A stretch of DNA of 64,000 nt from Nitrosopumilus sp. (GTDB taxonomy: Archaea; Thermoproteota; Nitrososphaeria; Nitrososphaerales; Nitrosopumilaceae), in NCBI GenBank assembly GCA_965214775.1, contig OZ243974.1, positions 1,760,001-1,824,000 on the forward strand, read 5' to 3'. The position numbers and the translations under genes are program-made. The notes under the pieces were generated by a model that searched no databases, was not told the origin of the DNA, and worked only from the letters and a program-made list of their open reading frames with translations. How positions within the stretch are numbered: the stretch's first letter is position 1; every line of letters starts with the position of its first letter. Positions 15,764 through 60,063 of the stretch are shown piece by piece.

Positions 15764-16013
15764 GGAGGTTACTAATGTCTATTATACGCCAGATTAATTC
15801 AAGGTTTCTTCGTTGGTGGCTAGGCGATGATCACATTTGTGATCTCACAGGTGAGAAACTCGGCTCTACACGTGGTGCAGAGACCAAAAACGGGGGGATG
15901 ACGATTTACAGTATCAATAACCTACGTCTACTGTCAGGGCTGCAATAAGACATTTGCGGTCAGCTGCCGCCTGCCTTGTGGCGATCTGTTGCTAGACCGG
16001 CACAAGCGCCGGG

Positions 16014-16123
16014 GCTGCAAAGTCAACCTATACCAGGAGGTCTTTCCAGAACACATGTCGTGGGCCTGCCCAGACATCCGGCCACAGCTGCAAAGTCAAC
16101 CTATACCAGGAGGTCTTTCCAGA
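16014..16123. repeat. perfect 37-bp direct repeat flanking a 36-bp unique insert
   Basis: GCTGCAAAGTCAACCTATACCAGGAGGTCTTTCCAGA at 16014-16050 and 16087-16123. Confidence 0.95.
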
Positions 16124-16422
16124 TGTCAAGTGAGCCGATCAGGAAAATCGCGATGGTGCGCTGCAACACCTGCGATGGTGACTATGCCAAAGACGAATGG
16201 TCCGAGGCCTACTCCAGCTGTAAAAACAAGGGGCATGATCTGCACCCCTACACGCGGAGGGTAAGGAGAGATGGGGGCTCGCAGTACTGCCAGACGTGCG
16301 GCACTTGGATCAATCTCGCTGATCCGTTTGATACCAAAAAGCACGACGGGCACGGTCTTGGGGTTCGTCCTTGCCCGCTACGATTCTCTAGCGGCAGAGA
16401 GCATTATTTTTTCCATATGTGA
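16123..16422 (+). CDS. small Zn-finger protein
   Basis: GGAGGT RBS, then MSSEPIRK; CNTC...C...H and CQTC...H..H. Confidence 0.6.
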   Translation: MSSEPIRKIAMVRCNTCDGDYAKDEWSEAYSSCKNKGHDLHPYTRRVRRDGGSQYCQTCGTWINLADPFDTKKHDGHGLGVRPCPLRFSSGREHYFFHM

Positions 16423-21939: not shown

Positions 21940-22040
21940 TGGTGATGATGATGATGACGGCATGGTGGTGGGTGATGATGATGACGGCATGGTGGTGGGT
22001 GATGATGATGACGGCATGGTGGTGGGTGATAATAACGGCA
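21940..22040. repeat. 27-bp tandem repeat
   Basis: GATGATGATGACGGCATGGTGGTGGGT, about 3.5 copies. Confidence 0.9.
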
Positions 22041-26354: not shown

Positions 26355-27290
26355 ATGAGAATTGCACGATTATTGTTGCTATCATCATCATCAACATCGT
26401 CATCAACGTCATCGTCATCAACATCGTCATCAACATCACCATACAAGTCTAATGAGACATACGGATTTGTAAACGGGGACAAGGTTGCAACAAAAGATGA
26501 AATCGCATACCTTACAGGCGTGCCAATTCCTCAAAATGTAAAAGATTTTTTGTTTGACGGATGGTACGAAGAGATCAAAGGCAGGCTTGACGAGCTGCCA
26601 TATGAAGAAGATCTTTCAAAATTCAAGATTTTGCCGCCAATTCCCAATCCAAACAAGATAATTTGCCTGGCATACAATTACGTTGATCACGCCAAGGAAC
26701 AGGGGCTAAAGGCCCCCAAAGATCCTGCATTGGTAATAAAACCCAGAACTGCGCTAAACAGCACACACTCAGAAATCATATGTCCGGATTTTGTCACCCA
26801 GTTGGATTACGAGGTGGAACTGGCCCTGATTATTGGAAAAAACTGCAAGGACGTTTCAGTAAAAGAGGCACCAGACAAAATTTTCGGATACATGGTATTC
26901 AACGATGTTTCTGCAAGGGACATACAGTTCAAAGACAAGCAGTTTACAAGGGGGAAAAGCTTTGACTCTTTTGCGCCGTGCGGGCCATGGATTACAACGG
27001 CCGATGAAATCAGAGATCCCCAAAATCTAAGACTGACAACGAAAATCAACGGCGAGATCAGGCAGGACTCGTCAACTAGCAACATGTTTATCAAAATCCC
27101 GGAAATAATCTCCAAAATTTCCAAAGTAATGACCCTTGAGAAGGGGGACATCATCTCTACGGGGACACCGGCAGGAGTGATGCTCAACAAACCCAATGCG
27201 GTATTTCTAAAGGACGGAGACAAGGTGGAAATGGAGATAGAGAGTCTGGGCAAACTTTACAACACCGTCAGATTTACAAGATCAGGCTAG
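26355..27290 (+). CDS. fumarylacetoacetate hydrolase family protein
   Basis: DYEVEL, NDVSARD, GKSFD, GTPAGV; poly-Ser insert near the N-terminus. Confidence 0.93.
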   Translation: MRIARLLLLSSSSTSSSTSSSSTSSSTSPYKSNETYGFVNGDKVATKDEIAYLTGVPIPQNVKDFLFDGWYEEIKGRLDELPYEEDLSKFKILPPIPNPNKIICLAYNYVDHAKEQGLKAPKDPALVIKPRTALNSTHSEIICPDFVTQLDYEVELALIIGKNCKDVSVKEAPDKIFGYMVFNDVSARDIQFKDKQFTRGKSFDSFAPCGPWITTADEIRDPQNLRLTTKINGEIRQDSSTSNMFIKIPEIISKISKVMTLEKGDIISTGTPAGVMLNKPNAVFLKDGDKVEMEIESLGKLYNTVRFTRSG

Positions 27291-55444: not shown

Positions 55445-55552
55445 CTTCCCAGAAGCTTCAGTTTCCCCGGTTTTTACAGCTTGGTCCTCAGGGCGGGCTG
55501 GTTCTAGGCTCAAAACTTCCCAGAAGCTTCAGTTTCCCCGGTTTTTACAGCT
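55445..55552. repeat. perfect 37-bp direct repeat flanking a 34-bp unique insert
   Basis: CTTCCCAGAAGCTTCAGTTTCCCCGGTTTTTACAGCT at 55445-55481 and 55516-55552. Confidence 0.95.
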
Positions 55553-55801
55553 GCGACACCACTTGGCGTTGCCGTATTTTTCCCTGATTTGGCTTTCCCT
55601 GTCATGCCTGCAATGATAGTAAGCAGAGTTTGCCGACTCCGGTTTTAACAGATTCATAAATTCTGTGTTAAGGTGTCCGCATCTGCGATGATGTATTTTG
55701 CTTCTTGATATCGGTTTTCTGACTATCAGCACGATATCCATAGGCGAGATCTCGTCAAACTGCTGCCTGCCTGTGATTTCATTCAATCCCATCCACCCCA
55801 T
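55529..55801 (-). CDS. small Zn-binding hypothetical protein
   Basis: IHHRRC...WCRSC. Confidence 0.6.
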   Translation of the reverse strand: MGWMGLNEITGRQQFDEISPMDIVLIVRKPISRSKIHHRRCGHLNTEFMNLLKPESANSAYYHCRHDRESQIREKYGNAKWCRSCKNRGN

Positions 55802-56921: not shown

Positions 56922-58604
56922 ATCCGGCGGCCCAGGGCCGTGCGATGCACGCTCCCTCTATCCCGCACCACTTTTCTGAACACACAAATACTTGAACGGA
57001 TTCAGTTTGATGGTTGACTGACTGGGGCCTGGGGGTGTTCACCATGATATCCATAATAGACTTTATGCGTAATCGGCCCATCTGATCTAAAAATACGACA
57101 CAATAGATCATTATTTGCACACCAACAACCCTAAAGATCTGTATGATTCCCTAACTGTATGGGCTCAAATGACAAGACTCTCCAAGCATTTCAAGCGTTA
57201 CAAGCGCAACACGAGATGCTAGTCGAGCAACACGAGATGCTAGTCGAGCAACACGAGCAGGTATCCAAGCAAAACAAACAGATGTCCAAGCAAAACGAGC
57301 GTATGAGGAAGCAGCTTGCGTTTGAGGACTCGTTGTGGCAGTCCGAAGAAAACAAGACAAAAAGAGTCGTGCGCGGCGGGACGCCTCTGCGGATGCACGC
57401 AATCGAGGTTGCAGACGGCATAATCGGCGATCCGGTGCGCCTTCGCAACGTCACGGGATGCACAAAGGAGTCATTTGAGATCATACTGGAGCGCTTTACG
57501 GAAGAAGTCATGGACGACGAGGACAGACCCCTGTTCTGGGAGGACGACGTAAGAGGCGGCGATGCCGGAAACCGGTGCAAGCTGTACATCAGGCACGCGC
57601 TGCTTGCAGTACTCATGAGCATAAGGACCAAGGCAACGCAGCATCATCTGGCCGCAACGTTTGACGTCGACCAGTCCACAATGTCCAGGTACCTCCGGTA
57701 CGGTGCCGTGTTACTGCGCCAGATCCTGCCTGCCTCCGAAAAGCTAACAAGCATCATCTGCAAGACCCCGGCAGGCAAGCTGGAGGAGGTGCTGATCCCA
57801 AAAAAGACGCTCCTGATTGACGGCACCCTGACTCCGGTAGACAGGCCCGGGGACAGGACCGCAAGAAAGACCAGATACTCGGGAAGAAAAAAGCGGCACA
57901 TGTTCAACACGATAATTACCTCGAACCTGGACGGCCTCATACTGCACTGCGGCAAGACTGTGGACGGAAGCGTCAACGACAAGGGCGTGATGAACGCAGG
58001 GGGCGGCCCGGACTTTGGAAGGCACACCGGATCAATGAGGAATGCAAAAAACGCAGACGATCCGGAAGAGGCGTTTGTGATTTACAGCGACCTGGGATTT
58101 GAGGGCATTCAAAAGATGCTTCCGGGCGCCATACACAGGCAGCCCCCAAAGAAGCCCAGGGACGGGGATCTTACTGCAACACAAAAGAGGCGCCGCAAGC
58201 AGATAAGCAGGGTTCGCGTCAGGGTGGAGCACCACATAGGGCGGCTCAAAAGATATGGCATTCTTACCATGCCGTTTGGCGGAACTGCCAAGGATCTCAA
58301 TTATTTCATGCAGATAATCACGGGTCTTGAGAACCTCAAGACGATGTTGAAAAGGAAAAAATACTATGGCCAGCTGCTGCAGCAGCTGCATCTGCTGCCA
58401 GACACATGACATACGGCGGTACGGACCGCCATTCTTTCTGACTTGTCAAAGGGGCACATTGCCGTGCTGCATGGTTGCGCACGTTCTTTTGGCGCAACTG
58501 GCTTTTACGTGCGTCATGACACGAGATGCATGCGGTAATTTGATCCGATCAGCGCATTTGCGTTTGGAAAAGCCTACGGAATTTTTAATCACGGTCGATT
58601 ACGC

Positions 58605-60063
58605 TAGTTTGTTGCATAACTCCGACTAGAGCCAAGTCAGTCCGCCCGGATCACTACTGGCACCAGGTTCCTACACGGCAGCCACCGCCTCTGCTATCCA
58701 CTTGTTGTACAGCCATATCCTCAGCTTTACTTCCTGCACTATATTGGACCACTTGAGGGCCATTACGCATTCGCCGAACATACGCTTTATGGCCGATATC
58801 ACGATCTCGACGATCCATCTGCTGCCAAAGCCGACCGTGCTCTTCCAGTACCGCAGGTTCTCCTGTCTTTCCTCCTTTGAGAGATCACCCACAGGCACCT
58901 CGGGGCCGCCCCCGAGCTGCCATCGCACCAGCCGGCCCCACTTGTCGCCGGTGCCCTTGCCCTTTGCATTGCAACTTGTCAAAAGCCGTATGAGTGGTTT
59001 TATGCCGCGTTTGTGGCACTCGGCTACGTTTTTCCTTGAGCCGTATGCGCCGTCTGCAAGCAGGATCTTTCCCGGTATATCTGGATTCGCGCCGGTGCCG
59101 AGTACAGCCAGCGGCGATGTCCCGTCTGCAAGCATGTTGGGGATCTTGACTGTATCCGCGCTGTCGGTGCGGCTCTGCTCCTCTTCCTTCTTGATGTTCT
59201 TGACTGTATCCGCGCTGTCGGTGCGGCTCTGCTCCTCTTCCTTCTTGATGTTCTTGACTGTATCCGCGCTGTCGGTGCGGCTCTGCTCCTCTTCCTTCTT
59301 GATGTTCTTGACTGTATCCGCGCTGTCGGTGCGGCTCTGCTCCTCTTCCTTCTTGATGTTCTTGACTGCATCCGCGCTGTCGGTGCGGCTCTGCTCCTCT
59401 TCCTCCTCTTCCTTCTTGATGTTCTTGACTGCATCCTCAAGCAGTGCCGGCAGTTCCGTGCTGTCGCCGATTGCATCACTTGTGACAGATACTGCCAGCA
59501 CCTGCTTGGTGTCTGCATCGACCATCAGGTGCATCTTGACAAATCCGCGCCTTACCTTCCATTTCTTGCATATCCACTCGCCCCGGTTGTGCTGCTTGAG
59601 GCCAGTGGCATCGGCTATCATGACCAGGTTGCGGGACTTGTCGCGCACCGTGATTATGTTCTCTGCAATGTCGACGTCAAGCTTCTGTATCCTTCTGAAT
59701 ATCGTGGTGTAACACGGCGAGTCCGCACCCTTTAGCATCTCCCCGAGCATACCTGACAGCTGCCTGTACTTTAGCATGAATGCGGTCCTGAGGGCGGCTG
59801 CGGCCATTATCATGCCTTCTGCATACAGGAACGGGGCGCCCTCCTTGTGGCGGTTGGCAGCCTTGAGATCCTTCTCCCAGTCCGGGTTGTACTTGACGAC
59901 CAGGCCTGCCCCTCTCTCTACGTACTTTGCATTATCCGTGCGTGTCAATGTATACAATACGAGGCATCCTCATGATCCATTACTTTTTCGGTCAGAATTA
60001 GTTGATCATTCCGGTGATTTTCAGTAAAGTTTCAAATTTTAGGCAGGGTTATGCAACAAACTA
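58605..60063 (-). mobile_element. IS5-family (IS903-like) element, transposase 58671-59957
   Basis: IR TAGTTTGTTGCATAAC; 8-bp TSD GATTACGC; ADATGLK, KMHL, ADGAY, RWIVE. Confidence 0.93.
59145..59435 (-). repeat. 54-bp (18-aa) tandem repeat, about 5 copies, inside the transposase
   Basis: VKNIKKEEEQSRTDSADT units. Confidence 0.95.

Follow-up and report, generated by a model that had tools for sequence, protein, structure and literature searches.

The question raised by this locus is what process could have placed two identical 37-mers of ordinary gene sequence around an unrelated 36-nt insert in the genome of a Nitrosopumilus species. The locus, called unit 1 below, was found in a stretch of 64,000 nt (the window), which covers bases 1,760,001–1,824,000 of a single contig of 2,833,656 nt with a GC content of 47.1%. 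Archaeal AmoA and archaeal ribosomal proteins were present in the genome and McrA was absent, which identified the organism as an ammonia-oxidizing archaeon. The genome is larger than those of the 120 congeners listed (2.83 Mb against 0.7–2.6 Mb) and abounds in insertion sequences and other repeats. When 300-nt windows were drawn at random, about 27% had one or more further copies (120 nt or longer, at 80% identity or more). The features discussed are collected in Table 1.

Table 1. Positions of the two ectopic units, the adjoining reading frames and the native CRISPR arrays (units and frames in window coordinates, arrays in genome coordinates)
Feature	Position	Strand	Remark or basis
Unit 1, first target copy, 37 nt	16014..16050	.	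Begins with G; true stagger 36 or 37 nt
Unit 1, spacer-like insert, 36 nt	16051..16086	.	GC 64%
Unit 1, second target copy	16087..16123	.	GGAGGT and the A of the next ORF's ATG
Upstream Zn-finger frame, …YVYCQGCNKTF…GCKVNLYQEVFP	15989..16264	+	Translation of sequence
99-aa Cys-rich, Zn-ribbon-like ORF P0001	16123..16422	+	No Pfam family matched
Unit 2, first target copy, 37 nt	55445..55481	.	Repeat search
Unit 2, insert, 34 nt	55482..55515	.	
Unit 2, second target copy	55516..55552	.	C-terminus and stop of minus-strand ORF 55529-55801
CRISPR array 1	2,420,114-2,425,007		68 repeats of 37 nt; spacers mostly 34-36 nt
CRISPR array 2	1,977,219-1,978,062		12 repeats of 36 nt, last degenerate; spacers 36-39 nt

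A repeat search of the window showed that the two copies of unit 1 are 100% identical and start 73 nt apart. The first-pass annotation had described identical 37-mers around 36 unique bp, and had read the duplicated DNA as Zn-finger coding sequence followed by a GGAGGT ribosome-binding site and the A of the next ATG; every part of this description was confirmed. The repeat translates as GCKVNLYQEVFP in the YVYCQGCNKTF frame. Read over a single target copy, this frame ends naturally as …FPDVK and a stop codon, and the read-through tail of the present frame is due to the insertion of unit 1. The GGAGGT motif lies 9 nt ahead of the ATG that opens the 99-aa ORF, and the A of this ATG is the final base of the second copy. 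Because ribosome-binding site and start both fall within the second copy, the ORF keeps them. The upstream frame was thus changed in its last residues only, and the start of the downstream ORF is intact. The longest exact match between the insert and the 5 kb on each side was 9 nt, and shuffled inserts gave a mean of 9.2 nt. The insert is not a product of local slippage.

The surroundings of unit 1 contain a ribbon-helix-helix protein, a truncated HTH transposase-like ORF and small Zn-ribbon ORFs. At window positions 15880–15905, a 57-aa ORF (start 15775) and the Zn-finger frame that runs into unit 1 lie in different frames. The shift is near a G run (aaaaacgggggga), and the two may be one frameshifted gene or two overlapping small genes. 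The tandem repeats of the window, at 59137–59460 (54 nt, 5–6 copies), 21946–22033 (27 nt, 3 copies), 26382–26447 (12–15 nt) and 57206–57247 (21 nt, 2 copies), are probably coding repeats and have no relation to the unit 1 finding.

The window-wide repeat search returned a second unit of the same build at 55445–55552, with exact repeats and a 37/34/37 division. The 90-aa minus-strand ORF at this position retains its C-terminus and stop codon despite the insertion. Both units are positioned at gene ends.

At each period from 30 to 300, the whole genome was then scanned for exact repeats of 28 nt or more that occur as isolated pairs and are not of low complexity. Pairs at periods 70, 71, 72, 73, 74 and 76 numbered 3, 5, 11, 14, 11 and 2 (46 in total), well beyond what chance would give. 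All other periods gave 0–2 pairs, except for protein-repeat periods (31 pairs at 156, 7 at 231, and 4 each at 165 and 183). In the same scan, no isolated exact repeat of at least 28 nt was found at periods 77–85. The many repeats of period 156 at 57,000–67,000, 360,000–363,000, 1,156,000–1,172,000 and 2,825,000–2,830,000 make up the dominant part of the non-CRISPR repeat signal, and presumably represent 52-aa protein repeats of very large surface proteins.

A mismatch-tolerant scan of the genome gave 56 candidates, and 47 units were kept after nine had been dropped. A stricter exact scan gave 44 single-copy units. Three units from later scans are absent from the set of 47 and bring the total to about 50. 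The first-pass annotation had proposed a genome-wide search for spaced direct repeats, and this search proved productive, with about 50 further cases at periods 70–76. The nine candidates dropped from the counts are internal to multi-copy elements or protein repeats: 113943, 228016, 794568 and 1521943 (25-nt repeat, period 75); 903893 and 2276086 (period 79–82); 2133549; 801305; and 1690978. Units 2288313 and 934396 are doubtful in that their insert matches run on into repeat-family sequence. An element of about eight copies (903,893; 2,276,086; 249,976 and five more) has an internal direct repeat of 33–39 nt with a period of 79–82 and an insert of 43–46 nt; a diverged paralog at about 2,503,840 is without the repeat. 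This repeat may be an old ectopic unit that was multiplied by transposition, and its geometry is outside the main class.

In most pairs the two copies have not yet diverged; about a dozen pairs have 1–3 mismatches. The insertion events are therefore mostly recent. The units are not clustered (11 close gaps against 11.5 expected) and are not enriched in repeated DNA (14 of 44 against a baseline of 27%). Four or five of them lie inside 16 kb at 1,266,242–1,281,865 (1266242, 1266906, 1267835, 1275414 and 1281865); this group notwithstanding, clustering over the genome is not above chance.

The lengths of the parts were investigated. Exact repeat lengths of 36, 37, 38, 39 and 40 nt were observed 14, 8, 4, 2 and 0 times, and a fixed stagger of 36 nt with chance extension predicts 15.8, 7.9, 3.0, 1.0 and 0.3. 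Insert lengths, taken as the period minus 36, are 34–40 nt. The inserts are all different and have no common end bases, and there is no conserved element between the copies; a transposable element with a target-site duplication was rejected on these grounds. The target-site duplications of casposons and insertion sequences are much shorter than those found here.

The genome has two native CRISPR arrays. The leader of array 1 is at its low end, AT-rich and TATA-bearing, and the cas operon is at the opposite end. The operon (cas8?-cas7-cas5-cas3-?-cas1-cas2-cas4) looks intact and is type I-B-like; its cas7 is Csh2, and two of its ORFs are without a family. Searches at relaxed thresholds found no more than a single cas1, cas2 and cas4 in the genome; their reading frames are open and free of internal stops. 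The first-pass annotation had asked whether cas1 is present, and a single cas1-cas2-cas4 set of type I-B was the answer. The far end of array 1 (2,424,440–2,424,900) has irregular, old units, whose spacers measure 57, 29, 30 and 50 nt; one irregular unit there has a degenerate repeat fragment, and several end in …gaggt.

No cas genes were found near array 2. Its neighbors are an IS66 transposase, a VirD4/TraD-like ATPase, an UpsF-like membrane protein and an actin-like protein. Because of the IS66, VirD4/TraD-like and actin-like neighbors, array 2 is probably on an integrated conjugative element. Its repeat, with up to 3 mismatches, is absent from 120 congeners. A 20-mer of the repeat had no match in viral contigs, and wider collections gave one chance match in an unrelated bacterial MAG.

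Native spacers are 33–39 nt over both arrays and native repeats are 37 and 36 nt. The mean period was 72.8 for the ectopic units, 72.0 for array 1 (p = 0.001 for the difference) and 73.5 for array 2 (p = 0.14). Repeat and insert of the ectopic units are both CRISPR-sized and fit array 2 slightly better than array 1. A comparison with the genome's own repeats, as first suggested from the sequence of unit 1, thus gave lengths that match the 36- and 37-nt arrays and a 5' G that agrees with the ends of the array 1 repeat, which begins with GT on both strands.

The origin of the inserts was investigated by searching the genome. Among the loose candidates, 28 of 56 inserts matched the genome elsewhere (E ≤ 1e-3), against none of the 67 spacers of array 1; none of the 11 spacers of array 2 matched at E ≤ 1e-2. 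After repeat-family artefacts and short partial matches had been removed, a near-full-length source at a distant chromosomal locus was found for 16 of 47 units, and for none of the 78 native spacers. Sources with full identity included 38/38 (unit 345230), 36/36 (1372070), 37/37 (1900928) and 38/38 nt (2725140). Twelve sources are single-locus and lie in ordinary genes; the source genes include a purF-like amidotransferase, an F420-dependent oxidoreductase, a plastocyanin-like protein and a binding protein. Three of the twelve are no more than 62 kb from array 1, and array 2 has none closer than 100 kb, a comparison that was made post hoc. The sources near array 1 fit the array-centered hotspots of P. 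furiosus (PMC5737086). Counter-selection against autoimmunity would account for the difference between a third of ectopic inserts and no native spacers being self-derived, if the ectopic units give no crRNA, and they would not be expected to be expressed as crRNA.

No consistent PAM was seen in the flanks of the 16 sources; about 5 of 16 have TT at −3 and −2 in a reading by eye. The shared PAM that the first-pass annotation had hoped for was therefore not found. No native protospacers were found in the genome for array 1 spacers. The source of the inserts, a further point of the same annotation, was traced for the 16 self-derived units and not for units 1 and 2, which had no match in the genome (E ≤ 1e-3). 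The exact 23-mer cores of the two inserts were not found in viral contigs; exact matching misses diverged sources, and such negatives carry little weight. The 23-mer core of the unit 1 insert was likewise not found in metagenome contigs, and blastn against plasmids gave no match.

Uninterrupted forms of the target sites were also sought. One repeat copy and the insert were removed in silico, and the resulting sequence was aligned end to end with paralogs. Many targets have paralogs because about 27% of the genome is multi-copy. For eleven units this gave clean empty paralogs, in which one target copy stands without an insert and the alignment has no more than 3 gaps and an identity of 83% or higher. 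The best of these, for example for 10462, 301682 and 2249808, have 95–98% identity and no gaps.

Public sequencing runs were examined for unit 1. The filled form was present in runs X3 and X6 of one study, as a 96-nt contig (16021–16116) at flank depth, and in run X2 of a second study, as a contig over 16066–16237. Run X1 has a contig in which 16013 is followed directly by 16087. The 73 nt in between are skipped, both sides share 37 nt, and nothing else differs over 382 nt; the depth is 4×. Since the 31-nt words used to build the contigs are shorter than the 37-nt repeat, the empty path has no k-mer of its own, and the X1 contig could be an assembly-graph shortcut caused by a break in the insert at 4×. 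It is nevertheless quite probably a real empty allele of unit 1. Orthologous sites of units 1 and 2 were found in none of 40 relatives, each species being represented by one genome and 24 of them belonging to the same genus; the searches returned short unrelated matches of 25–61 nt only. The neighboring 260-aa protein had no relative in metagenome contigs. Of the empty sites that the first-pass annotation had proposed to look for, those of eleven units were thus found in paralogs and that of unit 1 probably, with the k-mer caveat, in the X1 contig; the relatives gave none.

These data also bear on whether the units could be an artefact of assembly or sequencing, or a tandem duplication of local DNA that has since diverged. 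Assemblers can be confused by short exact repeats. The filled form, however, was found in contigs of two separate studies, with flank-level depth in X3 and X6. The insert of unit 1 has nothing in common with its surroundings, and for a third of the inserts elsewhere an exact counterpart exists at a distant locus. An artefact or diverged local duplication is thus extremely improbable. Neither slippage nor misassembly was found, and none of the 40 relatives carries the unit as normal coding sequence, three outcomes that the first-pass annotation had itself considered.

The choice of target sites was investigated by comparison with random windows. A 5' G or a 3' C was present in 23 of 29 targets, whereas 41% of random windows have one (p = 3e-5). 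G was the first base in 18 of 34 targets and T the second base in 16 of 34. No likeness to the array 1 repeat was found (p = 0.48), and likeness to the array 2 repeat showed a trivial shift (12.9 against 12.1 matches, p = 0.014). Over both native repeats, targets had a mean of 12.8–12.9 matches in 36–37 positions and random windows 12.1–12.4.

Of the 47 targets, 18 lay in open frames of at least 150 codons, whereas 75% of random 36-nt windows did so (p = 9e-8). In long frames, six units of period 72 lengthen the frame by 24 codons and leave it open, for example from 591 to 615, from 543 to 567 and from 810 to 834 codons. A period of 72 was counted by hand in 7 of 18 units in long frames and in 4 of 29 others, which is only suggestive of an in-frame enrichment among units in long frames. 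Selection would have purged most genic insertions, so that those that remain are intergenic, at gene ends, in frame or in mobile elements.

The second reading of unit 1 in the first-pass annotation had been a mini-array borne by a mobile element, considered here as a functional mini-CRISPR array or a decoy. The transposase-like, ribbon-helix-helix and Zn-ribbon ORFs around unit 1 would suit this reading, and the genome does have a cas-less array in a conjugative-element-like region. The repeat of unit 1, however, is locus-specific, ordinary coding and ribosome-binding sequence in two copies only. Each of the roughly 50 units has its own repeat, no closer to either native repeat than the means given above, and the native processing enzyme should not recognize such repeats. 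No unit has gone beyond one insert, and the units are dispersed over the chromosome without clustering. A functional mini-array is therefore very improbable. The other reading of the annotation, a scar of ectopic spacer integration, gained support from the further cases, the array-like lengths, the cas set and the empty sites.

Two congeners were used as a control. The same scan was applied to 800 kb of each and to two 400-kb samples of this genome. The cas1-positive congener G021 had no units at periods 66–80 in 800 kb. The cas1-less congener G002 had only pairs in a 75/150-nt protein-repeat region and one lone 30-nt pair of period 72. The two samples of this genome had 8 and 9 units. The units are thus a property of this genome and not of the genus as sampled, and the presence of cas1 alone is not sufficient, because the cas1-positive congener is without units.

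Five ectopic units departed from the usual division. Their apparent repeats are 43–46 nt and their inserts 26–32 nt, with normal periods of 70–76 (44 + 26, 43 + 30, 46 + 28, 44 + 32 and 44 + 28). The probability of a chance extension of 6 nt or more is 0.0014 per unit, and long repeats that keep the usual period are not what a simple fixed stagger would predict. Three of the long-repeat units have 3, 5 and 3 nt of microhomology between source and target flank at one junction, within the extension; most resolved junctions have 0–1 nt. The newest unit of array 1 (2,420,080–2,420,190) has a related form: the last 9 nt of the leader (aagtccata) are identical to the last 9 nt of spacer 1, so that this unit looks like 46 + 25 = 71. 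Because the newest native unit shows the same pattern, the constant sum is tied to the CRISPR machinery. Its cause could be a ruler that measures spacer and repeat together, later patch conversion between copies, or microhomology-assisted capture.

The constant sum also speaks for a CRISPR-independent process that always adds about 72–74 nt. Template switching through microhomology during replication or repair, for example, would combine a short copy of distant DNA with a compensating re-copy of the target. In the six cases above, the sum is steadier than its parts, and the microhomology at one junction in three units would be expected. The empty interval at periods 77–85 agrees with such a process, as does the absence of a clear PAM in a genome that has cas4. 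The inserts also have a slightly more stable fold than random 36-mers do (−3.1 against −2.2 kcal/mol, p = 0.007). By contrast, duplication length is sharply peaked at 36 nt with a chance tail, and a free split of the sum would spread it broadly. Both parts match the repeat and spacer sizes of the genome's own CRISPR arrays, and one of the six constant-sum cases is itself the newest unit of a native array. Most resolved junctions are nearly free of microhomology, and the 5' G preference agrees with Cas1 biochemistry. Neither of the two congeners, one of them cas1-less, has units, which argues against a habit of the lineage in those sampled. A CRISPR-independent process of this kind is therefore an unlikely origin of the units.

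From the combined evidence we infer that the units were very probably made by a Cas1–Cas2 integrase, through natural off-target integration on an unusual scale. Cas1–Cas2 loaded with a fragment of about 36 nt would attack ordinary chromosomal DNA and not the leader-proximal repeat. Two phosphodiesters about 36 nt apart on opposite strands would be attacked, and gap filling would duplicate the intervening 36–37 nt to give target, insert and target. The same reaction would have occurred about 50 times in this genome, and recently. Fragments would be captured regardless of self, and a third of them would be those traceable to ordinary chromosomal genes. Units without a native repeat would give no crRNA and cause no autoimmunity, and so would persist.

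Which Cas1–Cas2 acted is a separate question. The resident type I-B module beside array 1 is the somewhat better candidate. It includes the only integrase encoded in the genome, and its array is a hotspot of sources. On the other hand, the modal duplication is 36 nt, yet the sole cas1 lies beside an array of 37-nt repeats, and the period of the ectopic units differs from that of array 1. A lost module, or one borne by a mobile element, that built the cas-less 36-nt array 2 is a possible but less likely agent.

The off-target reaction as such is already known, and what is new here is an unusually rich natural instance. As related in citing papers (PMC7054753, PMC9456107), Nivala, Shipman and Church (Nat Microbiol 2018) found off-target Cas1–Cas2 integration that formed 'neo-CRISPR' units in E. 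coli type I-E with over-produced Cas1–Cas2. A 2018 preprint that cites this work (bioRxiv 10.1101/148544) calls the natural evidence for it 'circumstantial … in two other species'. The units described here share with those of E. coli a repeat-length target duplication, a spacer-length insert, a non-CRISPR site and a cell with Cas1–Cas2. Unlike the over-expression system, as these sources present it, this archaeal type I-B genome holds about 50 fixed natural events, for which self sources were traced and empty sites and signs of selection were found; no unit has grown into an array. Full-text literature searches returned no description of a natural genome with many off-target integration events.

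P. furiosus Cas1–Cas2 is reported to integrate in vitro at non-CRISPR plasmid sites, with paired attacks on opposite strands a repeat length apart; at the attacked nucleotide, G is strongly preferred and C comes next (PMC6698737). The preferred off-target sites share several positions with the repeat. The repeat-length spacing and the G start or C end of most targets here are similar. In contrast to those in vitro sites, the targets here resemble native repeats at the end base only and lie in a chromosome in vivo. In P. furiosus, the host chromosome is reported to supply most new spacers, CRISPR arrays are hotspots of this uptake, and self spacers are kept out of arrays by counter-selection (PMC5737086). 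The self-derived share of the ectopic inserts, its absence from native spacers and the sources near array 1 are like this self-uptake. The self spacers described there are transient in arrays and seen by deep sequencing, whereas those here are fixed, ectopic and without a clear PAM.

Ectopic spacer acquisition in Streptococcus thermophilus, as outlined in PMC7999890, takes place within arrays at internal native repeats. It is similar in that insertion is away from the leader-proximal repeat, and different in that the 'repeat' here is non-CRISPR DNA. Casposons and insertion sequences also duplicate their target by a staggered cut and fill-in (PMC5137440, PMC4046053). Their duplications flank a conserved element, unlike the inserts of about 36 nt found here, which are all different.

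Off-target integration has been known from over-expression and test-tube work, and its natural importance can be studied here in one genome. Ectopic units, which would be unable to cause autoimmunity, may retain self spacers that are purged from arrays, and would thus give a view of adaptation before selection. Their depletion from coding DNA would be a measure of the cost of an active integrase. The units also bear on the birth of new arrays, since a second spacer was acquired by none of the roughly 50. The geometry of the integrase yields testable rules, namely the 36-nt stagger, the 5' G preference and the constant sum. The possible presence/absence difference between public samples suggests that the process could be followed in culture. 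As a tentative further reading, this chromosome may record a natural burst of promiscuous adaptation, with the scars as a neutral sample of uptake and with an integrase 'sum ruler' of about 73 nt. If there was such a burst, the integrase would be an insertional mutagen, and a third or more of the DNA it captures would be self, with no evident PAM. If the sum ruler, which was previously undescribed, is real, short prespacers (25–33 nt) would lead to long duplications (40–46 nt).
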